64,000 bases of DNA from Candidatus Eiseniibacteriota bacterium (GTDB lineage: Bacteria; Eisenbacteria; RBG-16-71-46): positions 937,551-1,001,550 of the forward strand of contig OY970342.1 in assembly GCA_963717505.1 (NCBI GenBank), read 5' to 3'. The position numbers were made by a program, and so were the translations under genes. The notes beneath the pieces are model-generated. The model made no database searches. It was not told where the DNA came from and saw nothing but the letters and a program-made list of their open reading frames with translations. Positions 21,311-64,000 of this stretch are shown in pieces; position 1 is the stretch's first letter; every line of letters starts with the position of its first letter.

Positions 21311-21361
21311 GGTCTGCGCCGGTCGTTCGGGTGGGCGGTCGTCGCCACGGCGCTGGCGGGC

Positions 21362-23479
21362 TTGGGGTTCGCGACCGGCGTCCGGGCCCAGGGCCTCCAC
21401 CTCGCCCCGGATGCGGAAGTGCGCTCGCTGAAGTTCCGGTTCGCCGGCAAGCACGAGCTGATGGGGTCGGATCTGGCCGGAGTGATCGCCACCGCCGGGC
21501 CCGGCTCGTTCCGTGGGCTGCAGGTCGCCACCGCGTGGATCCCCTTCCTTCCGGATCCCAAGCCGCTTCCGTTCGACCCGGTCCGCCTCCAGGAGGACGT
21601 CGTTCGGATCCGGCGCCACTACCGGCGGCAGGGATTCCCGTCGGCAACTGTCGACTACGACGTGAGCACCGATCGCAATAGACGCCGGGTCGACGTGACG
21701 TTCCTGATCGATGAAGGTCCGGCGCTTCGAATCCGCAGTCTGACCATGGCGGGTCCCGGCGGTGACGAGGCCGTTCCGATCCCGGACGCCGAGCGACAGG
21801 AGATTCGCGAGGAATGGGGCCGGGTGCAGTCGCGATACCTCGGGCGCCGCGTCCGCCAAGAGGAAATCGTTCATCTTCAGAATGGGCTGATGTCGTTCCT
21901 CGCCGACCGAGGTTATGCGAAACCGGCGATCGAGCCGCGCGCCCTGATCGACTCGATCGGCGGCCACGTGGACATCGTGTTGCAGGTGACCCCCGGGCCG
22001 CGCACCCGGGTGTCCTCGATCGAGGTCGAAGGCGCCCATTCGGTTCCGGAAAGGATCGTCGAGCGACAGCTCGGCTTCGAGGCTGGCGACTGGACGTCGA
22101 AGAAGCACCTCGAACGCGGCCGGGCGAATCTGCTCACCGTGGAGCTCTTTCGTCGGGCGGACGTGCACCTCACGGGTTCAGTCGGCGACAGCGCCGTGCC
22201 GGTGAAGGTCCAAATTGGCGAGGACCGGCCACGGTTCACCAACATCGAAGTCGGATACGTCACGGACGGCGCCGGCATCACCGGCCAGGTGCGCTGGACC
22301 CACCCCAACTTCACCGGTGGAGCGCGTAGTCTCAACACCATCGGCCTGTTTCAGTCGGGATGGGGCTCGACCAGCGACGTCAAGGACCGGCTGGCGCGCG
22401 CGACCATCGTGCTCAATCAGCCCTACGTCGGCGCGCCCGAACTGTCACTCGGCTTCGGACCCTCGTTCGAATTCCGGGACGGGAACATCGACCGCTCGGT
22501 CGCCTACACGCTGCAGAGCACGCTGGTCTGGCGGTTCAATACGCTCCAGTCCGCCGCATTGCGCTACGAATTCACCTACCGGCAAGTCGACGAATCGCGC
22601 TCCGTCGAGCTGACTTCCGACACGCGATCGCCGCAGACGCTGCGCGCCATCGGGGGCCAAGCGCTGCTCGATTCCCTGAGCCAACCGGTGCTCAGCAGCT
22701 TGTTCAGTTTGTCCACCAGCCTGGGCGGTCTCGACGATATCGCGCGCCCACAGCGCGGCCTGGTGCTCAAACCGTACCTGTCCATCACCGCGCCTTCGCC
22801 CTGGGGCTCGATCGAGTTCGGCCGGGTGGACCTGCAGGCCACGACCTTCGTGCCAATGCCTGGTCGTTCGAATGCGGTCATGTTGCGCGGCAACTTCGGC
22901 GGACTGTGGCCGTTCGGCAAGAGCATTCCGGACCCGGGTGAGTTGCCGATCATCGAGCTGTCACGCATGCGCGACTACGTTCTGACCGCGGGTGGCGCCA
23001 ACGACGTTCGAGGCTACGCCACCCGCATGCTCGGGCCCAAGATTCCCCGGGTCGAAGCTACTTTGTCGGGCGCGGACACGGTCCTGGTTGCGGACGAATA
23101 CGTCGAATTCGGTGGGCTGCGCCGTTGGACCGGGACCGTCGAATTCCGCATTGGGATGCCGTGGATCTCGCGCGACGTCTTCGCGCACCTGTTCGGCGAC
23201 GCCGGGCGCGTCTGGACCTCCGACCCGCGATTCCTGCCGACCAACACCATCAGCGACGAGCAGCGTGTGTTCTATGCGACCGGCGGCGGGATCGGCTACT
23301 ACACCCCGGTCGGCGCCATTCGCTTCGACGTCGGCTACAAGCTGAACCCGTCGCTGCTGGACGAGCGCGATCCGCAGGACGTGCTGAACGCCTTGATCGC
23401 CGGTCAGCCGCCGTCGGCCGCCCGCGTCGATCCCTGGCGACGCTACGCCTTTCACTTCGCGCTGGGGCTGTTCTTCTAG
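21362..23479 (+). CDS. Omp85-family outer membrane protein (BamA/TamA-like) with POTRA domains
   Basis: POTRA-like repeats followed by a 16-strand-type beta-barrel ending ...YAFHFALGLFF (C-terminal Phe). A signal-peptide-like stretch (RRSFGWAVVATALAGLGFATGVRAQG) lies in frame upstream of the first ATG, so the true start may be non-canonical. The ATG at 21362 is reported. Confidence 0.75.
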   Translation: MGFATGVRAQGLHLAPDAEVRSLKFRFAGKHELMGSDLAGVIATAGPGSFRGLQVATAWIPFLPDPKPLPFDPVRLQEDVVRIRRHYRRQGFPSATVDYDVSTDRNRRRVDVTFLIDEGPALRIRSLTMAGPGGDEAVPIPDAERQEIREEWGRVQSRYLGRRVRQEEIVHLQNGLMSFLADRGYAKPAIEPRALIDSIGGHVDIVLQVTPGPRTRVSSIEVEGAHSVPERIVERQLGFEAGDWTSKKHLERGRANLLTVELFRRADVHLTGSVGDSAVPVKVQIGEDRPRFTNIEVGYVTDGAGITGQVRWTHPNFTGGARSLNTIGLFQSGWGSTSDVKDRLARATIVLNQPYVGAPELSLGFGPSFEFRDGNIDRSVAYTLQSTLVWRFNTLQSAALRYEFTYRQVDESRSVELTSDTRSPQTLRAIGGQALLDSLSQPVLSSLFSLSTSLGGLDDIARPQRGLVLKPYLSITAPSPWGSIEFGRVDLQATTFVPMPGRSNAVMLRGNFGGLWPFGKSIPDPGELPIIELSRMRDYVLTAGGANDVRGYATRMLGPKIPRVEATLSGADTVLVADEYVEFGGLRRWTGTVEFRIGMPWISRDVFAHLFGDAGRVWTSDPRFLPTNTISDEQRVFYATGGGIGYYTPVGAIRFDVGYKLNPSLLDERDPQDVLNALIAGQPPSAARVDPWRRYAFHFALGLFF

Positions 23480-43342: not shown

Positions 43343-45088
43343 ATGCGATTCGACGCGAATGGGAAGCTTTCGTTCATCCATCGCGGGTTGTTTGCGCTCG
43401 CTCTGGTCGCCGGTACGGCGAGCAGCGCAGCGGCGCAGATGACCGGGAACGGACTCTTGGTCTTCAACAACAACGCATCCGGCACGCTCGCCGGGCAGTT
43501 CCTGGGAACGGCGGGCGCCGGAGCTCCGGCCTGCGCCGGTCTTACGGCGGCGACGCTGTTCTCGGTCACCAATCCGAACAACAACTACGCCGATCCGCTC
43601 CTGAACGGCGGGATCTACCCGAACAACGACTTCCAGCCCGGGCTCGGCAGCCCGGCCTACAGCAACGCGGTGCAAGTGATCGCCGACGGATTCTTCGAGC
43701 AGGCCTGTTTGCTGGGCGCAGTGGGCCCCAACGCCGACGACCGCTGGTGGGAGGGCTGGACGTACTTCGATTCGACCGGCGCCAACCGCCAGGACCTGCA
43801 CCTCGCGGGGATGCCCGACCCGCGGCCGCTTGCGACCTACGCCGGCATCAACATCTATGGCCACCAGTATTTCGGGCCTGACAGCAATTACCTGGTTCGC
43901 GGCCAGCTGCGCGTCAAGAGCCAGGCCACGCTGACCATCGCCCCCGGCGTGGTCGTGTTCGAAGAGAACGCCTCGGTCGGCACGATCGTCATCGAGCGCG
44001 GCGGCAAGCTGATCGCGGTAGGCAACGCGTGCGAGCCGATCATCATCACCTCCGATCAGTATCCGAATCAGCGCCGCGGCCAGTGCGGCGGCATCGTGAT
44101 GAATGGCCTCGCGAGGACCAACATCGTCAACTCGTGCGCCGGTGACTCCTCGGCCAGCGAAGGCGGCGCAATCGGCTTCTATGGCGGCAACAATGACGAC
44201 GACTGCTCGGGCTACCTGCGCTACGTCCGCGTCGAGTACGCGGGCCGCGAGATCAGCGCCAACAACGAGCTGAATTCCTTCACGTTCAACTCGGTCGGCC
44301 AGAACACCCGCGTCGACTGGTGCCAGTCGTTCCGCGGCGCCGACGACGGCTTCGAGTGGTTCGGTGGACTGGCGCATTCCAAGTACTTGGTGGCGGTCGA
44401 CGGCGCCGACGACGGGATCGACAGCCAGCTCGGCTCGCGGGTGCGCGTCCAGTTCGCCATCGTTCGCACGTCGCCGGAGCAGGCGCCGTCGCTGACTCAG
44501 TTCGGCGAGCGCGGCATCGAAGCCGACAACAACGAGTTCAACTTCGATCAGCTCCAGTGCGCGGGTCGGTCCTACATGCGGGTCGCCAATGCAACGTTCA
44601 TCGGCGACAAGCGGGTGGGCGCGATCTACCCCGGCTCGAGCCAGGGCGCCGAGTGGCGTCGTGGCACGGCATACGACCTGCGCAATTCGATCATCACGAA
44701 CTACAAGAGCGCGGCGATTCGCGTGAGCGACGATGCGACGTGGGCGGCCCACTGCGCAGCCCCGCCGCCGGTTCCCGCCGTGTTCTGCCCGGGTGCCCTG
44801 GGTGTCAATCCGGTGGGTGCGGGCAACGTGTTCGTGGCCAACGGCCGTCCGAACCCGTTCCGCGACGAGGTCACGCTGTCCTTCAACCTGCCGACGTCGT
44901 CGCCGGTGACGGTGGAGATCTACTCGGCGGATGGTCGCCGGGTGCAGACGATCGCCAAGGGCGAAATGCCTGCCGGCCCGCAGTCGCTGCAGTGGAAGCT
45001 CGACCGCTCGACCCCGAGCGGCGTGTACTTCTATCGCGTCCTCGCCGGCCAGAACGAAGCAACCGGCAAGCTGACGTTGGTGGACTGA
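43343..45088 (+). CDS. Secreted protein with T9SS-type C-terminal sorting (FlgD Ig-like / Por_Secre_tail) domain
   Basis: Signal peptide. Gly/Asn-rich beta-rich body, possibly a parallel beta-helix. Last ~80 aa (NPFRDEVTLSFNLP...VEIYSADGRRV...GVYFYRV...KLTLVD) match the Por-secretion C-terminal domain pattern. Confidence 0.6.
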   Translation: MRFDANGKLSFIHRGLFALALVAGTASSAAAQMTGNGLLVFNNNASGTLAGQFLGTAGAGAPACAGLTAATLFSVTNPNNNYADPLLNGGIYPNNDFQPGLGSPAYSNAVQVIADGFFEQACLLGAVGPNADDRWWEGWTYFDSTGANRQDLHLAGMPDPRPLATYAGINIYGHQYFGPDSNYLVRGQLRVKSQATLTIAPGVVVFEENASVGTIVIERGGKLIAVGNACEPIIITSDQYPNQRRGQCGGIVMNGLARTNIVNSCAGDSSASEGGAIGFYGGNNDDDCSGYLRYVRVEYAGREISANNELNSFTFNSVGQNTRVDWCQSFRGADDGFEWFGGLAHSKYLVAVDGADDGIDSQLGSRVRVQFAIVRTSPEQAPSLTQFGERGIEADNNEFNFDQLQCAGRSYMRVANATFIGDKRVGAIYPGSSQGAEWRRGTAYDLRNSIITNYKSAAIRVSDDATWAAHCAAPPPVPAVFCPGALGVNPVGAGNVFVANGRPNPFRDEVTLSFNLPTSSPVTVEIYSADGRRVQTIAKGEMPAGPQSLQWKLDRSTPSGVYFYRVLAGQNEATGKLTLVD

Positions 45089-45209
45089 CATAAGGACTCG
45101 TCGGACGTCGGGCTCGGCGGCGCCCCGCAGGCCGCCGAGCTGCGACGTCAGGCGATCCTCGGTCGAAGGGGCCGAGGGTCGCTGTTCCATCGTGAGGAGG
45201 TTCATTCGG

Positions 45210-48032
45210 ATGAGTACCCATCTCCCTGGCAGCCTCATTCGTAGCCGCATGAAGCTCTGGATCGCGGTCGTTGCCGTGATCTGCCTGACCGCGACCTGGG
45301 CCGAAGCCGCAGCAATTGGAAAGATCGGCGGGCGAATCGTCGCCACCGACACCGGTGAGCCACTCGCCTACGCCGACCTGCTCCTGACGCCTGCCGATAC
45401 GACCCTCAAGCGGGTTGGCGGCCTGACCAATGGCGACGGCACGTTCCTGCTCGAGGCGGCTCCCGGGCTCTACACGCTCCAGCTGCGCGCTCTGTCGTAT
45501 GCCACCAAGAAATTCGAAGCCATCCAGATCGAAGAAGGAAAGCTGCTGGATTTCAGCACGGCACTCGCGCCCGAGGCGCTCCAGCAGGAAGAAATCGTCG
45601 TCGAAGCGCGTCGATCGGAGAACACGGAAGCGTCGATGCTCGCCGCCCGCAAGAAGGCGCCATCGGTCGGCGACGCGATCAGCGCCGAACAGGTGCGCAA
45701 GTCCGCCGACCGCGACGCCGCCGAGGTGTTGAAGCGGGTTACCGGCGTTTCGGTCAGCGACGGCAAATACGTGTTCGTCCGCGGCCTTGGCGAGCGCTAT
45801 AGCTCGACCGAGGTGGATGGGGTCCGCATCGCCAGCCCGGAGGAGAACAAGCGGGTGGTGCCGCTCGACCTGGTGCCCTCCACCCTGCTCGAGAACATCG
45901 TGGTGCAGAAGACCTACACCGCCGACCGGCCCGGAGAATTCGGCGGCGGCGACGTCCAGGTGCGCACCAAGGACTTCCCGGGACGGCGGACGTGGTCGTT
46001 CGAGGTCCAGCAGGGCTTCGCCGAGAACGTGACGTTCGAAAACCGCAGAGCCTACGGTTTCTACCAGGGATTCGGCGCCGGCCAGCGTGCCATGCCCTCC
46101 GAAGTCGCTGGCATCCCGGTCCCGGGTCTTTCGAACGCAACGCGCCCGCAGCTGGCGTCCATGGCGCGGTCGTTCACCAACGAGTGGTCGCCGTACGGAT
46201 CGACCACCGCGCCCAACGGCAGGTACTCGCTCACCTACGGTGACGAGCTCAAGCTGTTCGGCCGCTCGGTCGGGCTGATCCTCTCGTCCACGTTCTCGCG
46301 GGCCTTCGATATGCAGGAAGAGTCGCAGCGTTTGTTCCGCTCGTCGACCGACACGATCTACGACTACCGCGTGACCAAGTGGACGGATGTCGCGCAGCTC
46401 GCCGGCCTCGGCGGTCTCAGCTACCGGCTGTCCCCATCACACTCGCTCCACCTGCGCGGGCTCTACACCAGCACCGCCGATGACGAAGTGCGTATTTACG
46501 AGGGCTCGGATCACAACAGCAGCGACCCGATTTCCAACGAGTGGCTACAGCGCCGGAACACGCGGCTCCTGTACGCGCAAAGGACGGTGTTGTCCGGTTC
46601 GATCGAAGGCAAGCATCAGTTCCCGAGCGTGTTCGGCGCCGGCCTCGATTGGAAGTTCGGCCGCTCGCGGGCCGAGCGCGATCAGCCCGACCGGCGTGAC
46701 GTCACCTACAACCGGCAATACTGGTTCGAAGGCGACACTGCTCACTGGGTCCTCAGCTCCCAGGGGATCCGAGAGTTCGGCGAGCTGACCGACAACGGCT
46801 GGGGCACGACGCTCAAGGGCGAGGTGCCGTACCAGCTGGGGAAGCTCGGTAACGGCAAGATGGCGATCGGCTACGACCGCCAAGCCAAGGACCGCGACAA
46901 CTTTTACCGTCGATTCAACCTGTTCGTCGAGCCGCCCTATGTGGACAATATGGAGGCCCCGCCCGAGAGCATCTTCGCCCCCGGCACGTTCGACGGCAGC
47001 TCGACCAGCGGGTATCTGCTGGACGTGACTTACAACGACCCACTGATCGGCGTCGACAACTACACCGCCCAGCAGCGGGTGACCGCGGGATTCCTCAACT
47101 TCGACGTGCCTTTTGGCTCCAAAGTCCGTGGCGCCTTCGGGGTCCGCGTCGAGCATGGCTACCAGAATGTCGAGAGCTTCGCCCTGTTCGACCCGGACTC
47201 GATCCTGATCGCGGGCGAGCTGGACAACACCGACTGGCTGCCGGCCGGCAATCTGACCTGGGCCATCACCCAGACGGTGAACCTTAGGCTCGCGGGCAGC
47301 CAGACCATCTCGCGGCCGGATCTCAACGAGCTATCGCCGAGCCCATTCCCCGAGTACATCGGCGGCTACTTCGTGAAGGGCAACCCTGACCTCGATCGCG
47401 CCCTGCTCGACAACTACGACATCCGATTCGAGGCATTCCCCGGGCTCTCCGAAGTGTTGGCGGTGGGCGTGTTCTACAAGAATCTGCGCCAGCCGATTGA
47501 ACGAGTCATCAAGCCCGGCAGCCAGGTCGCCCTGCTGCAGCCCGAGAACTCCGCGAAGGGCCGCAACCAGGGTATCGAGCTGGAAGCCCGAGTCGGACTC
47601 GGAAGAGTATGGAGCCCGCTGTCCCGCTTCTCGATCAGTTCCAATGCGTCGTTCATTTCGTCCAAGGTCACGCTCTATCCAACGGTCTCGCGCACCGGGA
47701 CGTCCGAGCATCCCCTGCAGGGCCAGACTGATTATCTGATCAATGTCGGACTCGGCTACGCGATCCCGGGAAGACTCGATGCGACTCTACTGGTCAACTC
47801 GATCGGCAAACGCCTGACGGCGCTCGGCTACGATCCACTGCCCGACATCTACGAGCAGCCGTACACGTCGATGGACGCCGCGTTGAATATGATGGTGTTC
47901 TCCAACGGTCGGCTCAAGCTCGGTGCGAGAAACCTGCTCGACCCGACGATCGAGCGACTCCAGGGTCATCGTGTGTCATCTTCGTACCGGACCGGCCGCA
48001 CCTTCTCGATCGCGTTCACGGTCGGTTCGTAG
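45210..48032 (+). CDS. TonB-dependent outer-membrane receptor with N-terminal carboxypeptidase-regulatory-like domain
   Basis: GAGGAGG RBS. Signal peptide. CarbopepD_reg-like region. Plug and 22-strand barrel hallmarks. C-terminal ...TFSIAFTVGS terminus. Confidence 0.8.
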   Translation: MSTHLPGSLIRSRMKLWIAVVAVICLTATWAEAAAIGKIGGRIVATDTGEPLAYADLLLTPADTTLKRVGGLTNGDGTFLLEAAPGLYTLQLRALSYATKKFEAIQIEEGKLLDFSTALAPEALQQEEIVVEARRSENTEASMLAARKKAPSVGDAISAEQVRKSADRDAAEVLKRVTGVSVSDGKYVFVRGLGERYSSTEVDGVRIASPEENKRVVPLDLVPSTLLENIVVQKTYTADRPGEFGGGDVQVRTKDFPGRRTWSFEVQQGFAENVTFENRRAYGFYQGFGAGQRAMPSEVAGIPVPGLSNATRPQLASMARSFTNEWSPYGSTTAPNGRYSLTYGDELKLFGRSVGLILSSTFSRAFDMQEESQRLFRSSTDTIYDYRVTKWTDVAQLAGLGGLSYRLSPSHSLHLRGLYTSTADDEVRIYEGSDHNSSDPISNEWLQRRNTRLLYAQRTVLSGSIEGKHQFPSVFGAGLDWKFGRSRAERDQPDRRDVTYNRQYWFEGDTAHWVLSSQGIREFGELTDNGWGTTLKGEVPYQLGKLGNGKMAIGYDRQAKDRDNFYRRFNLFVEPPYVDNMEAPPESIFAPGTFDGSSTSGYLLDVTYNDPLIGVDNYTAQQRVTAGFLNFDVPFGSKVRGAFGVRVEHGYQNVESFALFDPDSILIAGELDNTDWLPAGNLTWAITQTVNLRLAGSQTISRPDLNELSPSPFPEYIGGYFVKGNPDLDRALLDNYDIRFEAFPGLSEVLAVGVFYKNLRQPIERVIKPGSQVALLQPENSAKGRNQGIELEARVGLGRVWSPLSRFSISSNASFISSKVTLYPTVSRTGTSEHPLQGQTDYLINVGLGYAIPGRLDATLLVNSIGKRLTALGYDPLPDIYEQPYTSMDAALNMMVFSNGRLKLGARNLLDPTIERLQGHRVSSSYRTGRTFSIAFTVGS

Positions 48033-54824: not shown

Positions 54825-54851
54825 TCCCCGCCGCGGAGCGGGCTTGGATCA

Positions 54852-56036
54852 CTAGACGCGCTCGAACAACACCGCCATCCCCTGTCCGCCGCTCACGCAC
54901 AGGGTCGCGATCCCGTAGCGGCCCTTGATGCGCTCCAGCTCGGACAGCAGCTCGACGACGATGCGCGCGCCGCTGCAGCCGGTCGGATGGCCGAGCGCGA
55001 TCCCGCCACCATTCGGATTCAAGCGCTCACGATCGAACTCGAGCTCGCGGTCGCAGGCCAGGACCTGTGCGGCGAACGCCTCGTTGAGCTCGACCACGTC
55101 GACCTGGCTCAGCGACAGGCCGTGGCGGTCGAGCAGCTTGCGCACCGCGGGCACCGGACTGATGCCCATGCGCGCCGGGTCGACGCCGACCGAGGTGTAG
55201 CCGAGCAGCGCCCCGAGAGGCTCGGCGCCGTGGCGCTTGGCTGCGGCTTCCGACAGCACCACGATCGCCGCGGCGCCGTCGGTGATCGCGGAGGCGTTGG
55301 CCGCGGTGATCGTGCCGTCCTTCTTGAACACCGGCCGGAGCTTCGCCATCTCCTCGAGCGAGGCATCGGCGCGGAAGTGCTCGTCGCGTTCGACCGCGGT
55401 CGCGCGCTTGCCTTCGCCAACCGTCACCGGGACGATCTCGCGCGCGAAGCGCCCTTCGCTCCATGCGCGCGCTGCACGCTGATTGCTGGCGAGCGCGTAG
55501 CGGTCCTGCTCCTCGCGCGGAATGCCGTATTCGACCGCCAGCGTTTCGGCGGTCTCGCCCATCAACTGGTTGCACAGCGGGCACAGGTAGCCATCACGGT
55601 ACATGCTGTCGACCAGCGTTTCGTCGCCGAGCTTCTTGCCCCAGCGCACGTCGAGCGCCAGGAACGGCACGCTCGACATGTGCTCGGTGCCTCCCGCAAG
55701 CACGACGTCGGCATCGCCGAGGCGGATGCTCTGCGCCGCCGACACGATCGACTGGAGGCCCGAGGCGCATGCTTTGTTGATCGTGTACGCCGGAACCTCG
55801 TCGGGAAGTCCGGCGCGGCGTCCGATCTGGCGCGCGATGTTGGGGCCGTTGCCGGCCTGGCGCGCGCAACCGAAGATCACTTCGTCGAACGCCGCGGCGG
55901 GCACCCGCGAGCGCTCGACCGCGGCGCGAGCCGCAGCGCCGCCCAGGGCGGCAGAGCTGGACTGGGCCAGTGCGCCGCCGAAATTGCCGATCGGAGTTCG
56001 TGTGGGTGCGGTGAGCAGGACTCGCGTCATGTCCAC
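54852..56036 (-). CDS. Acetyl-CoA C-acetyltransferase (thiolase II)
   Basis: Active-site Cys region INKACASGLQ. C-terminal NEAFAAQ...GHPTGCSGARI...CVSGGQG. Confidence 0.9.
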   Translation of the reverse strand: MDMTRVLLTAPTRTPIGNFGGALAQSSSAALGGAAARAAVERSRVPAAAFDEVIFGCARQAGNGPNIARQIGRRAGLPDEVPAYTINKACASGLQSIVSAAQSIRLGDADVVLAGGTEHMSSVPFLALDVRWGKKLGDETLVDSMYRDGYLCPLCNQLMGETAETLAVEYGIPREEQDRYALASNQRAARAWSEGRFAREIVPVTVGEGKRATAVERDEHFRADASLEEMAKLRPVFKKDGTITAANASAITDGAAAIVVLSEAAAKRHGAEPLGALLGYTSVGVDPARMGISPVPAVRKLLDRHGLSLSQVDVVELNEAFAAQVLACDRELEFDRERLNPNGGGIALGHPTGCSGARIVVELLSELERIKGRYGIATLCVSGGQGMAVLFERV

Positions 56037-57046
56037 CGGCGGAAGAACAGGGCTTCCTTGGCGATCGGCTCGGTGCGCGCGGTCAGCGCCGCCATTTCAT
56101 TCGCGTTGATGGGATTGAACGAGCGGGCGAGCGCGATGTTCTCCTCGAGCTGAGCGATCGAATCGCAGCCGACGATCACGGTGCTCACCGGCAACGACAA
56201 CACGTAGTCCATCGCCTGGCGCATGGTGATCCGGCCCTTGCCGCTCCCCGAGTGCGGCGCGGTCGAGATCAGCCGTCCGCGTGCCGGGACCTTCATGCCG
56301 ATGATTCCCATTTTCTTCTCGACCGCCATCGGCAGCAGCTCGGATGCGAAACTCAGGTGGTGCGGATCGGCGGCATTGAGCGCCATCAGGATGGTGTCGA
56401 ACGGAAAGCGATGAATCGCCTCTTTCAGCACGTCGGGATCAGCATGCCCGGTGACGCCCAGGAAACGCACGATCTTCTGCTCGCGGGCCTGCAGCAGCGC
56501 TTCGACCGCGCCGCCGGGCGCGAAGATCCGATCGACCTGTTCCATTCGCTCGAGGTTGTGGATCTGCCACAGGTCGAGGTGGTCCGTCTGCAGCAGCTCG
56601 AGCGACTTCTCGAGCAATCTCAATGAACCGTCGCGCGTGCGGTCGTGCGTCTTGGTCGCGAGGAACGCTTCCTTGCGACGCCGCACCATGACCTCGCCGA
56701 TGTAGCGTTCGCTCCAGCGCTCGTCCCCGCCGTAGCGTGCCGAGGTGTCGATGTAGTTCACGCCCAGGTCGAGCGCACGATCGATGATCGGCACCGCGAC
56801 GTCGGCGTTGTGGACTTCCTCGATCGCGCTCTGGCCACCGAGGCTGAAGAGGCCGACGCGGTATCCGGTCTGTCCCAGATTGCGCGTGGGCATTTCGGGC
56901 TTGGCGGCCGGAGCGACTTTCTTCGACGGCGTTTCCGCGGCGTTGGCGAGATTTGCTGCCAGGAAGCCGAGGCCCCCGGCGGTGCCCAGCTTGAGGAAGC
57001 CGCGGCGGTCGAGACCCTGGGCGTCACGGGGTTCTTGCTTGCTCAT
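56027..57046 (-). CDS. Aldo/keto reductase with twin-arginine (Tat) signal peptide
   Basis: RRGFLKLGTAGGLGFLAANLANA Tat signal. AKR TIM-barrel motifs (GVNYIDTSARYG, IHNL). Confidence 0.8.
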   Translation of the reverse strand: MSKQEPRDAQGLDRRGFLKLGTAGGLGFLAANLANAAETPSKKVAPAAKPEMPTRNLGQTGYRVGLFSLGGQSAIEEVHNADVAVPIIDRALDLGVNYIDTSARYGGDERWSERYIGEVMVRRRKEAFLATKTHDRTRDGSLRLLEKSLELLQTDHLDLWQIHNLERMEQVDRIFAPGGAVEALLQAREQKIVRFLGVTGHADPDVLKEAIHRFPFDTILMALNAADPHHLSFASELLPMAVEKKMGIIGMKVPARGRLISTAPHSGSGKGRITMRQAMDYVLSLPVSTVIVGCDSIAQLEENIALARSFNPINANEMAALTARTEPIAKEALFFRRWT

Positions 57047-57250
57047 GAGGTGCCTCGGTCGTGGATGGTGTGACGTGGCCGGCTCATTCTAGCGCCATCC
57101 CGGGCAGCGAACACACCGCCCGCGGCGGGTGGCTCATGCGAGGCGGCCGCCCTACCAGGCCCCGGCACCGCGAAAACCGTGGACGCTAGGGTTGCGGCTG
57201 TGCTCTGCTCTTGGTGGGTCTTCTGTCACGCCCCTACCCCCGAGAGCCGC

Positions 57251-60200
57251 ATGTCCACTCGATCCGTCCTCCGCTGGTCCGCCCTGGCTGGGTTGCTGCT
57301 GTTGCATTCGCCCGTCGAGGCAAGGGGCAACCGCCTCGGTCTCCCGCGAATCCACACGACGGACATCGCGCGCCGCATCGACGCCAATCAGATCAACATG
57401 TGCGCGACGAACGTCGGCTCGTTCGCATTCAACCTGTCCACCGGAGACGCCGGACTCGAGTACCCGAAGGGCTCTGGCATCACGTCGATCTTCGCCGCGG
57501 GATTGTGGATGGGCGCGCGGGTCGGCGGCGAGACGCGCGTGGTGGTCGCCGAGTACTCACAGGAATTCGGTCCGGGCGCGATGTCGGGCGGAACGTTCAC
57601 CGATCCCTCGCTGCCCGCCTACCGCGTGTACAAAGTCGCGCGGTGGTCCGGCGATCCGCAAGACAGCGCTCATGTCGATCGTGTGGCTCCCGGCCCTTTC
57701 GAGGACCCGCTCGTTCATGACTCCTGGAGCGAGTACATGGCTGGTGCCGTTCCGTTCGGCGCCCCGTGGCGCCTGCATCGACTGCCCGACCTGAACACGC
57801 CAGCGCCCGACGACTCGGTCGACGTTCCCGGCCCCGAGGTTCTCGGCGACCAGATGCTGTGGACCGTTTACAACGACGCGAATCCCTCGAACCATTACAA
57901 CAATGCCGGCAACTCGCCGCCTCTTGGCATCGAAGTGCAGCAGTTCGTCTGGGCCTTCAACCAGTCCGGCGGGCTGGGGCGAACGGTGTTCATGAAGTTC
58001 AAAATCATCAACAAGGGCGGCAACTCTCTCGAGGACGCGTACGTCTCCCTGTGGAGCGATCCCGACCTGGGGGGCGCGGCCGGCTTTACCGACGACCTCG
58101 TCGGTTGCGACACAACGCTCGATCTCGGCTACGTCTACAACGCGACCAACAACGATGGCGGCTATGGATCCTCGCCGCCGGCGTGCGGATTCGTGCTGCT
58201 TCGCGGCCCGGCGACCGGCTCAGACACGCTGCGCATGACGGCCTTCACCAAGTACATCAATGGCACCGACCCGACTGCGAACCTCGATTCCTACAACCAC
58301 ATGCAGGGTTTGTTCGCCGACGGTAGCCCGATCGTCGATCCGACCACTGGGTTCGAGACGCGCTTCATGCACTCGGGCGAGCCCGTGTCCGGAATGGGGT
58401 GGCTGGATTCGAATCCCGCCGATCGCAGGATGATGGTTTCGTCCGGGCCATTCCACATGGCCCCCGGCGACACTCAGCAGGTCGAGTACGCGATCGCGAT
58501 CGGCCAGGGCAGCAATCGGCTCGCTTCGATATCGGACCTCAAGACGCTTGCCGCAGAGCTCAAGGACCTGGTGCCACCGCCACCACCGCCTACTGCGCTC
58601 AACTGCCCGCGGGACCCAGATTACTGGAGCGTGCAGTGCGATCCCTCGGAAGCCGAACTCAGTTCCAGCGCCGTGGATTCGATCGCCGCGTACGTGAATC
58701 AGGGATCTCTGCTATTCGACTGGTTGGCGCCGCGAAACGAATTCTGCGCGGCGATTACTCCTGCCGAGCCGGTGGACCTCCGTGCCCAGGCGAAGCGCGA
58801 GTTCGCGGCGTTACTGGCGAACTACGGCGCCGGCGTGCTCGACATCGTCCCCCCGGGCGGCTCGACCATCGAGCTGCAGCCGCAAACACCCATCTCCTGT
58901 CCCGGCATGGCCGCCGTCAACATCGAGGGGCTGGTGGCGATCGCCACGCCGAGTATCAGCGTGCGAAGTGCGGACTACCTCGATCTCAATCCCGACCATC
59001 GGCGGGCTCTCGAGGGGCTGGACTGGGGAGGCGCCGGGTTCGGAGGCGGCGCGGCAACCTTGTGGGAATTCTTCGGTTCGAGCCTCGATCCCCTGGCACA
59101 TCCCGACTCCTTCGTCACCGTCGAGATTCGTTTCTCGCCGACCGAGACTCAGTACGCCTACCGGTACTTGCGGCTCGAGCAGGTCGATGGTTCGCAGCCG
59201 GTCATCGGTCGCGGGTATCCATACGGTGGCTTCCGCACCGTCCCCTTCCAGGCGTGGGATGTGCGCAACAACGTCCAGCTCGACGTTGCGTTCGTCGAGC
59301 GCACGATCACCGACGCCGACGGCACGATCCTGCCCCCGGCTCAGCAGCCGGCGACGTTCGATTCGACCTGGATGCCTTCGTCGGATCCGCTGGACCGCGA
59401 GTATCTGATCGTGATCTCGCGACCCTATGGAGACGCCGCCAAGGCCGAGTTGGCCATCGACGGCCTGCCGATCAGCGGGGTGATGCCCGGGCTCTATGTT
59501 CTGTGGTCGTATCTGCGTACCCCCGACGACGTGATCGACGACGGCGACGCGTTCGAATTCGTCTGGTCGCCCTACAGCGGCCCCGGCGTCGACACGCGAC
59601 TGCTCGAGCTCGAGGGCGAGCCCCTGTCCGACCCGTCGGTGGAAGCCGCGTACGCCGAGATCATCGCGTGCGTCGGCAATGTCAACCGCGGCATCGGGCT
59701 GGAGAACCCGTGCGACAAGGTGACGCCCGTCCTGGTGTCGCTGGTTGACGCGTTCGCGGAACCCACCGGCGTCACGCTCGCGTGGCAGGTGTCGGGCACG
59801 GGACTTCCGGTCGTCCTCGAGCGCCGCGAGTCGCACGGCGACTGGGCTCCCGTGGCGATCCTCAGCGCCGACGGCACCGGGATGATCCGCTACCTGGATC
59901 GTGACGTTCTCCCCGGCAACCGCTATGGCTATCGCCTCCAGTTCGACAGCGACGGCGTCGTGGTGACGCAAGGCGAAACCTGGTTGGACGTTCCGGTTCG
60001 CGATGCCCTGGCGCTCGCAGGCTTCGTCCCGAATCCGGCGTCTCGGAACCCGTCGGTCGAATTCCTTCTGCCCTCACGCGATCGAGCGCGACTGGAGCTG
60101 TTCGACGTGCAGGGACGCAGGATGCTCACCCGCGAAGTCGGCCAGCTCGGGCCGGGCCGTCACGTGATCTCGCTGGAAGGCGCGGTCCAGCTGGCGCCGG

Positions 60201-60268
60201 GAACCTACTTGATCACGCTCACCCAGCGGGGACAGACGACCCGCCGCAAGGGCGTCGTCGTCCGCTAG
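57251..60268 (+). CDS. Large secreted protein (1005 aa) with T9SS-type C-terminal sorting domain
   Basis: Signal peptide (LAGLLLLHSPVEA). C-terminal ~80 aa (NPASRNPSVEFLLP...LELFDVQGRRM...GTYLITLTQ...) of the same family as the 43343-45088 C-terminus. Body unassigned. Confidence 0.55.
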   Translation: MSTRSVLRWSALAGLLLLHSPVEARGNRLGLPRIHTTDIARRIDANQINMCATNVGSFAFNLSTGDAGLEYPKGSGITSIFAAGLWMGARVGGETRVVVAEYSQEFGPGAMSGGTFTDPSLPAYRVYKVARWSGDPQDSAHVDRVAPGPFEDPLVHDSWSEYMAGAVPFGAPWRLHRLPDLNTPAPDDSVDVPGPEVLGDQMLWTVYNDANPSNHYNNAGNSPPLGIEVQQFVWAFNQSGGLGRTVFMKFKIINKGGNSLEDAYVSLWSDPDLGGAAGFTDDLVGCDTTLDLGYVYNATNNDGGYGSSPPACGFVLLRGPATGSDTLRMTAFTKYINGTDPTANLDSYNHMQGLFADGSPIVDPTTGFETRFMHSGEPVSGMGWLDSNPADRRMMVSSGPFHMAPGDTQQVEYAIAIGQGSNRLASISDLKTLAAELKDLVPPPPPPTALNCPRDPDYWSVQCDPSEAELSSSAVDSIAAYVNQGSLLFDWLAPRNEFCAAITPAEPVDLRAQAKREFAALLANYGAGVLDIVPPGGSTIELQPQTPISCPGMAAVNIEGLVAIATPSISVRSADYLDLNPDHRRALEGLDWGGAGFGGGAATLWEFFGSSLDPLAHPDSFVTVEIRFSPTETQYAYRYLRLEQVDGSQPVIGRGYPYGGFRTVPFQAWDVRNNVQLDVAFVERTITDADGTILPPAQQPATFDSTWMPSSDPLDREYLIVISRPYGDAAKAELAIDGLPISGVMPGLYVLWSYLRTPDDVIDDGDAFEFVWSPYSGPGVDTRLLELEGEPLSDPSVEAAYAEIIACVGNVNRGIGLENPCDKVTPVLVSLVDAFAEPTGVTLAWQVSGTGLPVVLERRESHGDWAPVAILSADGTGMIRYLDRDVLPGNRYGYRLQFDSDGVVVTQGETWLDVPVRDALALAGFVPNPASRNPSVEFLLPSRDRARLELFDVQGRRMLTREVGQLGPGRHVISLEGAVQLAPGTYLITLTQRGQTTRRKGVVVR

Positions 60269-60272
60269 TCGG

Positions 60273-61400
60273 CTACTTCTTGCGGCCGCGGTTCGCCGCC
60301 GCGCGTTTGACCGGCTTGGTGCGACTCTTGGTCGCCACCGAGAGCTTCTTGGCCGCCAGTGTGCGGCGTTCGGCCTTGCGCAGTCGACCGATCGCAGGCC
60401 TGGTCTTGGCGCGTTCTGGGTCGTTCTTCTTCCGCGGCGCGAGTCGCGTGCGGTCGGGACCGGCGCCACGCACCGACTTGAGACGTGGCGTGTCCTCGGC
60501 GCGTTTCTTCGCCACAGAGGCCCGCGCCGCGGTCCGCGAGGCGCGAGTCACCTTTGGCTTCTCTCGGTAGTCGGGGCGCAGCGCGACTCGACTCACGGCC
60601 TTGGAGCCCTTTGTCACCGGCTTGCGGATCCCGGCACGCCGCGGGGCGCCATCGTCCTCGAAGGCCTCGGCCACCGCGGGCGGCGCGGGAATCACGCCGG
60701 CGGGTTCGCGGAACACGATCAGGTTGCCGTCGGGGTCCGTGATCTCGGCATAGACGCCCAGGTCGCCATCGCCGGGTTCGGAAGTCAGTCGCACACCGCG
60801 GTCCTCGACCTCGCGCGACCAGACGTCCAAATCGTCGACGTCGAACGCGAGCGCCACGCTCTGGTGGGTGTGTGCCGGCGCATCGGGGCGCTCGGCCCGC
60901 GCCCGGACGATGATTCGGGAGCCGCCGGTTTCGAACTCGATCCAGTCGGGCAGCTCGGCCATCGGGGCGAGCCCGAGGCGATCACGGTAGAACATGGCCG
61001 TCGCCCCGAAGTCCCACGCGTTGACGATCACCGCGCCCAGCTCGGGCGCGCCCGAACCGGGGGCGGGCCGGGCCGGCTCGAGCAGCGTGACCAGGGTGCG
61101 TTCCGGATCGCGCATGTGGATCAGTCGCCCGAACGGCTCCTTACGGATCTCGTCGACGAATCGCATGCCGCGGCCGCGCAGTCGCTCGACGTCGGATTCC
61201 AGTCGGTCGGTGGCGAAGCACAACTCGTACTCCGGCTTCTGCTCGGGCTCGATCGCGAGCAGCGCGAAGCTGGACGAACCCGTGCGAAACGGGGTGAAGA
61301 ACGGACTCTCGTTGCCAGGGGTGAGCCCGACCGCATCCCGGTAGAACTCGGTCATTCCATCCATATCGGAGGTGAACAGAATCGAATAGGCGAGCTTCAA
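60273..61400 (-). CDS. Tandem VOC (glyoxalase/bleomycin-resistance/dioxygenase) domain protein with ~115-aa Lys/Arg-rich C-terminal tail
   Basis: Two VOC-fold halves. Tail KPVTKGSKAVSR...KKRAEDTPRLK...RKKNDPERAKTRP...AAKKLSVATKSRTKPVKRAAANRGRKK. TTG start 10 nt after the ALDH stop with an AGAGGGA RBS; ATGs at 61364 and 61355 are alternatives. Confidence 0.6.
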   Translation of the reverse strand: MKLAYSILFTSDMDGMTEFYRDAVGLTPGNESPFFTPFRTGSSSFALLAIEPEQKPEYELCFATDRLESDVERLRGRGMRFVDEIRKEPFGRLIHMRDPERTLVTLLEPARPAPGSGAPELGAVIVNAWDFGATAMFYRDRLGLAPMAELPDWIEFETGGSRIIVRARAERPDAPAHTHQSVALAFDVDDLDVWSREVEDRGVRLTSEPGDGDLGVYAEITDPDGNLIVFREPAGVIPAPPAVAEAFEDDGAPRRAGIRKPVTKGSKAVSRVALRPDYREKPKVTRASRTAARASVAKKRAEDTPRLKSVRGAGPDRTRLAPRKKNDPERAKTRPAIGRLRKAERRTLAAKKLSVATKSRTKPVKRAAANRGRKK

Positions 61401-61410
61401 GAAATCCCTC

Positions 61411-62871
61411 TCATTCCACGCTGATCCAGACGCTCTTGACCTGGGTGACGTCGCGCAGGCTGTCCGGTCCCAGGTCGCGGCCGAAACCCGAGGCCTTGTA
61501 GCCGCCGAACGGAACACCGGCGTCGTAGAAGTTGTAGGTGTTGACCCAGACGGTGCCGGCCTGGAGCCGGCGTGAGACCGAATGCGCCTTCTTGATGTCG
61601 CGCGTCCACACGCCGGCCGCGAGCCCAAAGGGTGTGTCGTTGGCGATGCGCACCGCATCGTCGACGTCGTCGAACGGAATCACGGCCAGCACCGGGCCGA
61701 AGATCTCCTCGCGCGCAACGCGCATGTCGTTGCGCACGCCGTCGAGCACCGTCGCCTGAACGAACCAGCCCTTGCCGTTGACCGGCTGGCGCTTGCCTCC
61801 GGCGACGACTTTCGCGCCTTCCTGGATGCCGGCCTCGACGTACCCGAGCACGGTCTGCATCTGCTTCTCGCTGACCAAGGAACCCAGCCGGGTCTTGGGC
61901 TCGAGCGGATCGGCGGGCTGGAGCTTGGCCGCGCGCTCGGCGAGCTTGGCGACGAACTCGGCGTGGATGCCGCGCTCGACCAGCAGTCGCGAGCCGGCGG
62001 CGCACACCTCACCCTTGCCATAGAAGATGCCGGTCGAAGCACCGCGCACCGCGGCGTCGAGGTCGGCGTCGGCGAACACGATGTTCGGCGACTTGCCGCC
62101 CAGCTCGAGCGTGAGCTTCTTGATCGTGTCGGCGGCGGTCCGCATCAGGTGTTTGCCGACCTCGGTCGAGCCGGTGAACGAGATCTTGTCGATCCCGGGA
62201 TGTTTCACCATCGCCTCGCCGGCCACCGAGCCCTTGCCGGGCAGGATGTTGAGCGCACCCGGCGGCAGACCGGCTTCGAGCGCCAGTTCACCGATACGGA
62301 TGGCGCTGAGCGGCGTCAGCTCGGCGGGTTTGATGATGACGGTGTTGCCGGCGGCGAGCGCGGGCGCCGCTTTCCAGGCCACCATGATCATCGGGAAGTT
62401 CCACGGAATGATCGCGCCCAGGACCCCGAGCGGCTCGCGCAGCGTGTAGTTGAGGAACGCAGAATTCACGGGCAGAGTTTCGCCGGCGATCTTGGTCGCC
62501 CAGCCGGCGAAGTAGTGGAAGCAGTTTGCGACCATCGGGATGTCGACCTGGCGCGACTCGAAGATCGGTTTGCCGTTGTCGAGCGTTTCCAGGCGCGCGA
62601 TGTCGTCGGCGTTCTGGAGGATCAGGTCGCCGAGCTTGAACAGCACTCGCTGGCGATCGGCGGGCTTCATCTTGGCCCATGGCCCCTCGAACGCGGCGCG
62701 CGCGGCCTGGACCGCCCGATCGACGTCCTCGACGCCGGCCTCGGCCACCTCACAGATCGGCTGCTCGGTCGCTGGATTCATCGTCGTGAACGTCCGGCCG
62801 GAGGCGGCGTCGACCGCCTTGCCGTCGAGAATCAGCTTGCCGGGCTTGATCGCGGCGAGGGTTTCGGTCAT
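61411..62871 (-). CDS. NAD(P)-dependent aldehyde dehydrogenase
   Basis: ALDH glutamate and cysteine active-site motifs (LELGGKSP, FYGKGEVCAAGSR). 486 aa. Confidence 0.9.
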   Translation of the reverse strand: MTETLAAIKPGKLILDGKAVDAASGRTFTTMNPATEQPICEVAEAGVEDVDRAVQAARAAFEGPWAKMKPADRQRVLFKLGDLILQNADDIARLETLDNGKPIFESRQVDIPMVANCFHYFAGWATKIAGETLPVNSAFLNYTLREPLGVLGAIIPWNFPMIMVAWKAAPALAAGNTVIIKPAELTPLSAIRIGELALEAGLPPGALNILPGKGSVAGEAMVKHPGIDKISFTGSTEVGKHLMRTAADTIKKLTLELGGKSPNIVFADADLDAAVRGASTGIFYGKGEVCAAGSRLLVERGIHAEFVAKLAERAAKLQPADPLEPKTRLGSLVSEKQMQTVLGYVEAGIQEGAKVVAGGKRQPVNGKGWFVQATVLDGVRNDMRVAREEIFGPVLAVIPFDDVDDAVRIANDTPFGLAAGVWTRDIKKAHSVSRRLQAGTVWVNTYNFYDAGVPFGGYKASGFGRDLGPDSLRDVTQVKSVWISVE

Positions 62872-62982
62872 TGGGGGGAAGGCCTTTCCAGGCGGGGCCC
62901 ATTTGTGCCCCGGGCGTCTCGCCGGAGCGGATCGACATCCAGGCGCATCATGGCCTGGGAGCGCTCCGTCTGTCGAGTGCCT

Positions 62983-63009
62983 TGCACGTTCTGGACAGGA
63001 TGCTAGACT
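62983..63009 (+). promoter_or_regulatory. Candidate sigma-70-like promoter upstream of the decaheme cytochrome gene
   Basis: TTGCAC-(15 nt)-TAGACT about 120 nt upstream of the ATG. GGAGG RBS lies 9 nt before the start. Confidence 0.25.
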
Positions 63010-63129
63010 GCCGGCGCTATCACCCTGCGGTTGTCATCGACCCTCTCGATCAGCCGCCGGTCGAAACCGTCGGATCCCCTCAAGGCCGACCCAACGTAGC
63101 GCCAACCCTCCTCCCCTTGGAGGCGCGCC

Positions 63130-64000
63130 ATGCGTAAGGGTGCAGTCTTCACGGCGGTACTCCTCGGCACCTCGACGCTCGCGTTGGTCTTCGCACGCGC
63201 TCCGCTCTCGCAGTCGGAAGCGAAGCCCGTCGGCGACGACGCCTGCATCGAGTGTCACGAGGCGCAGTATCTGAGTTTCCGGGCAGGTCCACACGGCCGC
63301 GCCGCCCACGATCCGGGCAACGCCACAGCTCCCGACTGCGAAACCTGCCACGGTCCCGGATCGCTTCACGTCGAAGCCGACGGCGACAAATCGCTTCCGG
63401 GCTTCGCCACCATGAAGCGGTACGGCGACAAAGCGACCAACGCCCAGGCCACCGAGCTGTGCCAGACCTGCCACAAGGGCGGCGAGCAGTCGTACTGGCA
63501 GCACAGCGCTCACTCGCGCAAAGGCGTGTCGTGCATCGAGTGCCACAGCATGCACTCGGCCAAGGACCCCGGCGGCGAGAAGCAGCTCAAGGCGGAGACG
63601 CCCACCGAGATGTGCTTCACCTGCCACAAGACCAAGCAGTTCAAGCTCTCGCGCTCGGCCCACATGCCGCTGATCGAGGGCGGGATGAATTGCACCGAAT
63701 GCCACAACCCTCATGGCTCGGCGGGACCCCATCAAATCCGCGCGGTGTCGAACAACGAGCTGTGCGAGAAGTGCCACGCCGACAAGCGCGGGCCGCTGTT
63801 GTGGGAACACGCGCCGGTGCGCGAGAACTGCGTGACCTGTCACGAACCGCACGGCTCCAACAACGACAAGGTGCTGACGGGAAAGAAACCCTTCCTATGT
63901 CAGCGGTGCCACATCGGCACGCGACACCCGGCCACGCTCTACGACAATCCCGATCTGCAGAGCAATCGGCTCTTCAACCGCTCGTGCACGAATTGCCACT
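63130..64000 (+). CDS. MtrA/DmsE/MtoA/PioA-family periplasmic decaheme c-type cytochrome (3' end truncated by window edge)
   Basis: Signal peptide. 10 CXXCH motifs within 290 aa, at the density and spacing typical of the MtrA family (CIECH, CETCH, CQTCH, CIECH, CFTCH, CTECH, CEKCH, CVTCH, CQRCH, CTNCH). No stop before the window end. Confidence 0.8.
   Translation, partial: MRKGAVFTAVLLGTSTLALVFARAPLSQSEAKPVGDDACIECHEAQYLSFRAGPHGRAAHDPGNATAPDCETCHGPGSLHVEADGDKSLPGFATMKRYGDKATNAQATELCQTCHKGGEQSYWQHSAHSRKGVSCIECHSMHSAKDPGGEKQLKAETPTEMCFTCHKTKQFKLSRSAHMPLIEGGMNCTECHNPHGSAGPHQIRAVSNNELCEKCHADKRGPLLWEHAPVRENCVTCHEPHGSNNDKVLTGKKPFLCQRCHIGTRHPATLYDNPDLQSNRLFNRSCTNCH

Follow-up and report, generated by a model that had tools for sequence, protein, structure and literature searches.

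Does the truncated gene at the downstream end of this 64,000-nt stretch of contig OY970342.1 (positions 937,551 to 1,001,550; the whole stretch is referred to here as the window) encode the cytochrome of an outer-membrane electron conduit, and if so, with which partners and in which direction would electrons move? The sequence of the gene identifies its product as a periplasmic c-type cytochrome with ten hemes that belongs to the MtrA/DmsE family. We put the probability at roughly 0.88 that the gene opens a porin-cytochrome operon of the MtrAB type, one without MtrC, in a Candidatus Eisenbacteria-like bacterium with an outer membrane. A preliminary description of this DNA had placed ten CXXCH motifs and a signal peptide within ~290 aa at 63130-64000 and assigned the protein to the MtrA/DmsE/MtoA/PioA family of periplasmic decahemes. 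The coordinates proved exact, a putative signal peptide was read by eye and from hydropathy, and the family assignment was borne out by a TIGR03508 score above the cut-off and by alignment to a solved MtrA.

In translation, the open reading frame (ORF) beginning at ATG 63130 on the plus strand is stop-free over 290 codons and remains open to the end of the window. A search of ~5.8 billion proteins recovered P0001, a 306-aa protein that is 100% identical to the window part and is encoded on a contig of 4,162,540 bp. Because the full-length protein has 306 residues, the window edge removes no more than 16 codons, and the heme count is still ten; the coding sequence would be expected to end ~50 nt past the window. 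The C-terminus of P0001 (...CTNCHSQIHGSNHPSGKFFLR) lacks a CXXCH in its final 16 residues. The motifs number exactly ten and start at residues 39, 70, 111, 135, 162, 188, 212, 234, 257 and 286. In a six-frame translation of the 64 kb, only three stop-to-stop ORFs hold at least two CXXCH motifs, namely the mtrA-like ORF and the 19- and 20-heme genes at 8225-11624 on the minus strand, and the density of motifs is therefore not due to chance. The N-terminus (MRKGAVFTAVLLGTSTLALVFARAPLSQSEA) consists of MRK followed by a hydrophobic stretch of ~18 residues, with candidate cleavage sites after VFA22 or SEA31, as judged by eye and with a hydropathy calculation.

Profile, structural and alignment evidence agree on the family. 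NCBIfam model TIGR03508 (DmsE family decaheme c-type cytochrome; curated whole-protein cut-off 192.2 bits) was matched by the window part with 239.6 bits over profile positions 1-248 of 258 and by full-length P0001 with 258.9 bits over positions 1-258 of 258. Pfam recognized three Paired_CXXCH_1 units in the window protein (110.5 bits). The sole strong match among solved structures was 6R2Q_A, the MtrA of Shewanella baltica (E=5.7e-60), with residues 28-304 aligned to 56-331, every heme motif in register and 39.9% identity over 263 aligned columns. The PDB table names 6R2Q chain A ‘Cystathionine beta-synthase’ although the aligned sequence is that of the decaheme MtrA, a mislabel that could mislead. 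In an alignment of 78 homologues the ten motif histidines are invariant. Eight of the 14 non-motif histidines (H80, H128, H178, H195, H227, H241, H266 and H294) are conserved at ≥85% and three more at 46-78%, and these extra histidines are expected to be enough for bis-His ligation of all hemes. The best match among GTDB species representatives is 62-65% identical, and P0361, a member of the same cluster (≥90% identical), carries the Joint Genome Institute (JGI) name ‘DmsE family decaheme c-type cytochrome’.

The preliminary description had expected an MtrB-type barrel downstream. Such a partner was found in the same genome. With the barrel of a relative as query, we recovered P0137, a protein of 726 aa that matches Pfam PF11854; like P0001 and the small cytochrome P0277 described below, it is encoded on a contig of 4,162,540 bp. 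Relatives of P0137 score 256-280 bits on PF11854, for which the cut-off is 23. An AlphaFold model of P0137, built from a 110-sequence alignment, has a pLDDT (predicted local distance difference test) of 91.6, a pTM (predicted template modeling score) of 0.85 and ~26-28 long strands. Its top Foldseek match is MtrB (6R2Q_B; E=3.9e-39, template modeling [TM] scores 0.81/0.90), with 16% identity in the structural alignment; the next matches are TonB-dependent receptors at TM ~0.4. By this model, P0137 is a large (~26-strand) barrel with the MtrB fold.

The placement of the barrel gene is drawn from several contigs. On a short-read contig, a gene begins 12 nt after the stop of P0001; on a second short-read contig, P0137 begins 12 nt after a plus-strand gene, and a further plus-strand gene begins 25 nt after P0137. 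A 30-kb JGI contig from a congener, L083, carries a member of P0001’s 90% cluster and is syntenic with window 54851-63998 at 85-88% nucleotide identity. Window and L083 have in common the gene order thiolase, aldo-keto reductase, glyoxalase, aldehyde dehydrogenase and mtrA, and in the intergenic region before mtrA nucleotide similarity resumes only at 63114. In L083 an ORF follows mtrA by 13 nt and is 80% identical to P0137 over 470 aa, so that the barrel stands directly downstream in that syntenic locus. Among 80 related loci, nearly all of those reaching far enough hold an MtrB homologue directly after MtrA, and a barrel gene 10-20 nt after the cytochrome gene is kept in ~60 loci that span many phyla. 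Scanning metagenomes with P0137 gave 149 pattern matches with no relative among them, and an exact 30-mer search of the JGI metagenomes gave no match.

These results also bear on whether the decaheme protein is a soluble periplasmic carrier or store that works outside any barrel, or belongs to an inactive locus. MtrA can be purified in soluble form, and electron exchange with periplasmic partners is possible. We nevertheless find this explanation scarcely credible in view of the conserved 10-20 nt spacing between cytochrome and barrel genes, the intact ORFs with ten heme sites and conserved distal histidines, and the confident, MtrB-like barrel model.

What follows mtrB was read from the loci whose MtrB is closest to P0137. 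Two of these, L081 and L001, have a small class I monoheme cytochrome c after mtrB, and L082 has a diheme cytochrome c in its place. A profile of the small cytochromes retrieved P0277 (139 aa). The closest relative with sequence past mtrB is L085, which holds the last 178 MtrB residues (75% identical to P0137), followed after 23 nt by a cytochrome c that shares 75% identity with P0277, then a NapC/NirT-like cytochrome of 208 aa and a hydrophobic protein of 68 aa; L081 and L001 show the same parts. Since L085 and the closest relatives carry mtrB, the cytochrome c gene, the NapC-like gene and the small protein, we infer an operon mtrA-mtrB-cytochrome c in the source genome, with the NapC-like gene and the small protein probably next. 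The preliminary description had proposed a search for a cymA/mtoD-like partner. In the closest relatives, mtrB is indeed followed by the gene for a small cytochrome c and by one of NapC/NirT type (CymA/ImoA-like), and for the source genome the same order is taken over from them.

The NapC/NirT-like proteins beside mtrAB (L085 979-1811; L081 6046-6860; L001 13528-14226) have three CXXCH motifs, a conserved CM(T/S)SGCH (CX4CH) and two N-terminal hydrophobic segments, and in L085 and L081 a conserved hydrophobic protein of 63-68 aa comes after the gene. Across the 120 members of the small cytochrome family, the CXXCH and a second histidine (His108) are invariant and no methionine is conserved, which suggests that the heme is bis-His ligated. 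The structure of the Sideroxydans cytochrome MtoD has been solved. No sequence match of the small cytochrome family to any solved cytochrome was found at E≤1, so the family does not match MtoD, provided that the MtoD structure was in the library searched. Bis-His ligation, which is unusual, has been reported for MtoD (PMC13390432). A cytochrome c with 73% identity to P0277 is also the final gene of a different cluster, in L084 (4543-10429), which consists of a multiheme c7-type cytochrome, a molybdopterin-oxidoreductase-like protein, an Fe-S protein (Fer4), NrfD and the cytochrome c. This cluster has the look of a quinol oxidoreductase, either alternative complex III or a relative; because it is without mtrAB, the small cytochrome family is not exclusive to MtrAB.

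To place the cytochrome within its family, a neighbor-joining tree of the 78 homologues was constructed, in which the solved S. baltica MtrA and loci typed by gene context served as the only references. The window protein falls in a clade composed only of sequences labeled Candidatus Eisenbacteria and of unlabeled metagenome-assembled genome (MAG) sequences (bootstrap 100/100), and the S. baltica MtrA groups with proteobacterial loci of MtrC context (bootstrap 87/100). In this tree the window protein is thus separate from the proteobacterial MtrCAB clade. The phylogeny that the preliminary description had proposed has been run in this restricted form, and it puts the protein in an Eisenbacteria clade of its own. 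The step it took from an MtoA/PioA type to Fe(II) oxidation, and to possible electron transfer in both directions, was not supported: the clade is specific to Eisenbacteria and joins no named reference grouping, and according to published work (PMC8805035, PMC7005843) sequence does not settle the direction.

No OmcA/MtrC gene adjoins mtrA. The 5' neighbor, in the window and in L083 alike, is an aldehyde dehydrogenase gene on the opposite strand (61411-62871, minus strand in the window); a search for MtrC in the remaining genome was not made. Seven proteobacterial loci in the context survey have a 720-900-aa ten-heme gene directly upstream of mtrA, most of them with a CymA-like four-heme gene nearby. 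The two proteobacterial upstream genes that were tested, those of L059 and L063, passed TIGR03507 (OmcA/MtrC; 455 bits); none of the tested multiheme neighbors in Eisenbacteria loci L003 and L006 passed it, and both window proteins with 19 and 20 hemes missed its cut-off. At 5575-9500 of L006, the Eisenbacteria locus with the MtrA nearest to the window’s (65%), a second, longer MtrA-like ten-heme protein lies 4.3 kb upstream; it has 425 aa, scores 170 bits on TIGR03508, below the cut-off, and is followed by a 755-aa six-heme protein.

Gene context likewise addresses a DmsEF-like module, in which electrons would pass to a dedicated extracellular reductase (e.g. a dimethyl sulfoxide or iodate molybdoenzyme) and not to metals. 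The best NCBIfam model bears the name ‘DmsE family’, the DmsEF of Shewanella DmsEFAB is likewise a decaheme with a barrel under the common TIGR03508 subfamily model, and the L084 cluster that ends in a relative of P0277 includes a molybdopterin oxidoreductase with Fer4 and NrfD. TIGR03508, however, models the whole MtrA/DmsE subfamily and not DmsE specifically, and the L084 cluster is without mtrAB. Unlike in Shewanella DmsEFAB, neither the window nor the congener L083 has molybdopterin oxidoreductase or DmsAB-type genes close to mtrAB, and such genes are likewise absent beside mtrAB in the close relatives L085, L081 and L082 and from the conserved neighbors in the 16 Eisenbacteria loci surveyed. 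We consider such a module highly improbable here.

A Rieske protein and a cytochrome b lie directly after or before mtrAB in many Eisenbacteria loci (L003, L005, L013, L014, L016 and L017, ~+3.1 to +8 kb after mtrA) and beside mtrAB in Terriglobia, Binatia and deltaproteobacterial loci as well. Further loci with a conduit and a bc-type complex are L038, L039, L043, L046 and L047. A 9-heme cytochrome, at times along with an 18-heme one, often accompanies the Rieske protein and cytochrome b. Homology of the window’s 19- and 20-heme proteins to these 9- and 18-heme neighbors would have connected the two window loci, but blastp against all the loci retrieved gave no match at E<1e-8.

Compared with characterized systems, the locus is an MtrC-less MtrAB conduit with a Mto-like gene order, as far as sequence comparison with its relatives can define it. 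It resembles the MtrAB part of Shewanella MtrCAB (6R2Q) in the alignment of the ten-heme MtrA, in the barrel gene immediately 3' of the cytochrome gene and in a barrel model that superposes on MtrB. It differs from MtrCAB in that no MtrC/OmcA surface decaheme is adjacent, in the shorter cytochrome (306 vs 333 aa), in the position of the window protein outside the MtrCAB clade and in the low score of P0137 on the MtrB model TIGR03509. With the cluster mtoD-mtoA-mtoB-imoA-pmcA of Sideroxydans lithotrophicus ES-1 (PMC13390432) it has in common a decaheme and a barrel without MtrC and, in L085, L081 and L001, the clustering of mtrAB with a monoheme cytochrome c of class I and a membrane cytochrome of the NapC/NirT family, the small cytochrome being probably bis-His like MtoD. 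The gene order differs, however, the NapC-like protein of the window’s relatives has three CXXCH plus CX4CH, and Sideroxydans is a betaproteobacterial lithoautotroph, whereas the window probably comes from a heterotroph of Eisenbacteria, a candidate phylum of the Fibrobacteres-Chlorobi-Bacteroidetes (FCB) group. Rhodopseudomonas palustris TIE-1 PioABC also pairs a decaheme with an MtrB/PioB-family barrel without MtrC. PioA has an extended N-terminal region of ~270 residues before its heme domain (PMC10654088), an extension that is absent from the window protein, whose 306 residues include a first CXXCH as early as residue 39. Neither beside the window mtrA nor in relatives was a HiPIP (PioC) noted, although no search with a HiPIP model was made.

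By homology with the solved Mtr complex, the cytochrome would be exported through the Sec pathway, receive ten covalent, bis-His-ligated hemes in the periplasm and be threaded into the lumen of the ~26-strand MtrB barrel encoded directly downstream. The heme chain would then span the outer membrane and allow electrons to pass between the periplasm and the cell exterior. On the pattern of the closest relatives, the monoheme P0277 would act as a periplasmic shuttle and the NapC/NirT-type membrane cytochrome would link the conduit to the quinone pool. If electrons flow outward, the route would run from quinol through the NapC-like protein, cytochrome c and MtrA to acceptors outside the cell, such as humics or Fe(III) in soluble or chelated form.

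We lean modestly toward such export, as a matter of judgment and not of measurement, because the window content is heterotroph-like, NapC/NirT proteins usually serve as quinol dehydrogenases and the window holds a second large multiheme cluster. The heterotroph-like genes are those for ETF-QO, thiolase, aldehyde dehydrogenase, TonB-dependent receptors and cargo of a type IX secretion system (T9SS); no autotrophy or oxidase genes were seen within the 64-kb window. The main alternative is an uptake conduit like MtoAB or PioAB, in which extracellular Fe(II) or mineral would be oxidized at a surface-exposed heme of the decaheme and electrons would move inward through a small cytochrome c, either reaching a terminal oxidase or passing uphill to quinones by way of a NapC/NirT-like protein or a bc complex. 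Uptake fits a gene order like that of Mto and the Rieske/cytochrome b neighbors that are frequent in other Eisenbacteria. MtrC is not adjacent, the order mtrA-mtrB-monoheme c-NapC/NirT in the closest relatives mirrors the Sideroxydans cluster (PMC13390432), the small cytochrome family has the invariant second histidine and lacks a conserved methionine, as would suit a bis-His protein like MtoD, and many Eisenbacteria loci have the Rieske/cytochrome b complex right after mtrAB.

Baker et al. report that MtrCAB can be run backwards (PMC8805035), and MtrAB is stated to work both ways under laboratory conditions (PMC8805035, PMC7005843); FeGenie classes clusters without MtrC as ambiguous (PMC7005843). 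Against uptake, MtoA and PioA form no function-specific clade in MtrA trees (PMC8805035), and Magnetospirillum AMB-1, which has MtrAB only, is cited as a likely iron reducer (PMC7005843). The window protein itself lies outside the reference MtrA clade and every named clade, the small cytochrome is without a match to solved cytochromes, NapC/NirT proteins are mostly quinol dehydrogenases, and the gene content described above points to a heterotroph. We therefore treat uptake, or transfer in both directions, as possible but clearly the less probable course, again as a judgment; ‘both directions’ in particular is speculation, because the sequence does not show direction.

A doubtful but more specific proposal is that Eisenbacteria and neighboring soil phyla have a distinct MtrC-less MtrAB wiring, in which a dedicated bis-His monoheme family like P0277 would link MtrA to an inner-membrane quinone module and one conduit could serve both export and uptake, e.g. 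Fe(II) oxidation, in a heterotrophic phylum that is uncultured. The quinone module may be an atypical NapC/NirT protein that has a CX4CH fourth heme site and works with a small membrane protein, a complex of Rieske protein and cytochrome b that includes 9- and 18-heme subunits, or an NrfD complex like alternative complex III.

Several points weigh against the MtrAB-type operon and its proposed working. P0137 scores 205.7 bits on TIGR03509, under the curated cut-off of 240.05, and is therefore a divergent member of the MtrB family. The adjacency of mtrA and mtrB in the source genome follows from matching gene spacings and from the congener L083, and the position of P0277 and the presence of a NapC/NirT gene in that genome are read across from relatives. 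The direction of electron flow is a judgment and is not readable from sequence.

MtrAB, MtoAB and PioAB homologues are known to be widespread, and annotation pipelines already name such proteins in Eisenbacteria MAGs; NCBI, for its part, already labels Eisenbacteria MtrB/PioB proteins. No paper that connects Eisenbacteria to MtrA/MtoA came up in our literature search, and the sole mention was a FeGenie survey that lists Eisenbacteria among taxa with iron-cycling genes (PMC8478452). The present locus adds a closed-genome Eisenbacteria example to these conduits. It suggests that a candidate phylum known only from metagenomes has hardware for electron exchange with extracellular iron, humics or partners, which bears on how roles in iron cycling are assigned in soils and sediments. 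There is nothing unusual about the gene itself. More useful is that mtrAB is repeatedly linked to a particular small cytochrome, to a NapC-like protein or to a Rieske/cytochrome b complex, as these partners are testable candidates for the question of electron-flow direction.

The features of the mtrA locus and of the second multiheme cluster are collected in Table 1. The region between the divergently transcribed aldehyde dehydrogenase and mtrA genes is presumed to be the promoter region of the mtrA operon. A promoter and terminator scan found no sigma-70-like site on the plus strand and no terminator in this upstream region, and an inverted-repeat search of the region upstream of mtrA gave nothing usable on the plus strand.

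Table 1 Features of the mtrA-like gene and of the 39-heme cluster, in window coordinates
Feature	Position	Strand	Details and basis
mtrA-like gene	63130..64000	+	codons 1-290 of 306, cut at window end; translation
Shine-Dalgarno GGAGG	63119..63123	+	6 nt 5' of ATG; read from sequence
Sec-type signal peptide (predicted)	63130..63222	+	aa 1 to ~22 or 31; sequence MRKGAVFTAVLLGTSTLALVFARAPLSQSEA and hydropathy
Heme-binding core, ten CXXCH (aa 39-290) amid conserved distal-ligand histidines	63244..63999	+	motif positions
Intergenic region, aldehyde dehydrogenase/mtrA	62872..63129	.	between divergently transcribed genes; ORF list
Fe-S/flavin (pyridine-nucleotide-disulphide) oxidoreductase	11621-13060	minus	39-heme cluster
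20-CXXCH protein	9735-11624	minus	39-heme cluster
19-CXXCH protein	8225-9751	minus	39-heme cluster
536-aa signal-peptide protein	6615-8225	minus	39-heme cluster; ATG overlaps preceding stop codon

The preliminary description had also counted the 39-heme cluster toward at least two distinct porin-cytochrome systems in the genome. The cluster is indeed separate from mtrA and ends with a signal-peptide-bearing protein of 536 aa, whose C-terminus (...LSWTF) is typical of outer-membrane barrel ends. No Pfam match was found for this protein, and it may be a novel barrel partner of the cluster. Two porin-cytochrome systems are for these reasons plausible.

Elsewhere in the window, a 1029-aa ORF (57179-60268, plus strand) without a Pfam match separates the aldo-keto reductase gene from the glyoxalase gene. 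This ORF, in window segment 57013-60288, is absent from the otherwise syntenic L083, where the same two genes are ~130 nt apart, and by this comparison the segment is an insertion or deletion between close relatives. The glyoxalase-domain ORF at 60273-61658 (461 aa) overlaps the aldehyde dehydrogenase gene on the minus strand by ~250 nt; its true start is probably further downstream, because the L083 orthologue has 385 aa. At 16181-23479 of the window, an Omp85/POTRA protein comes after a TamB-like protein of 1709 aa, and 43343-48032 encodes a TonB-dependent receptor as well as a protein that carries a T9SS C-terminal sorting domain. Judged by their sequences, these Omp85/TamB, T9SS and TonB-dependent receptor genes fit a diderm bacterium of the FCB group.

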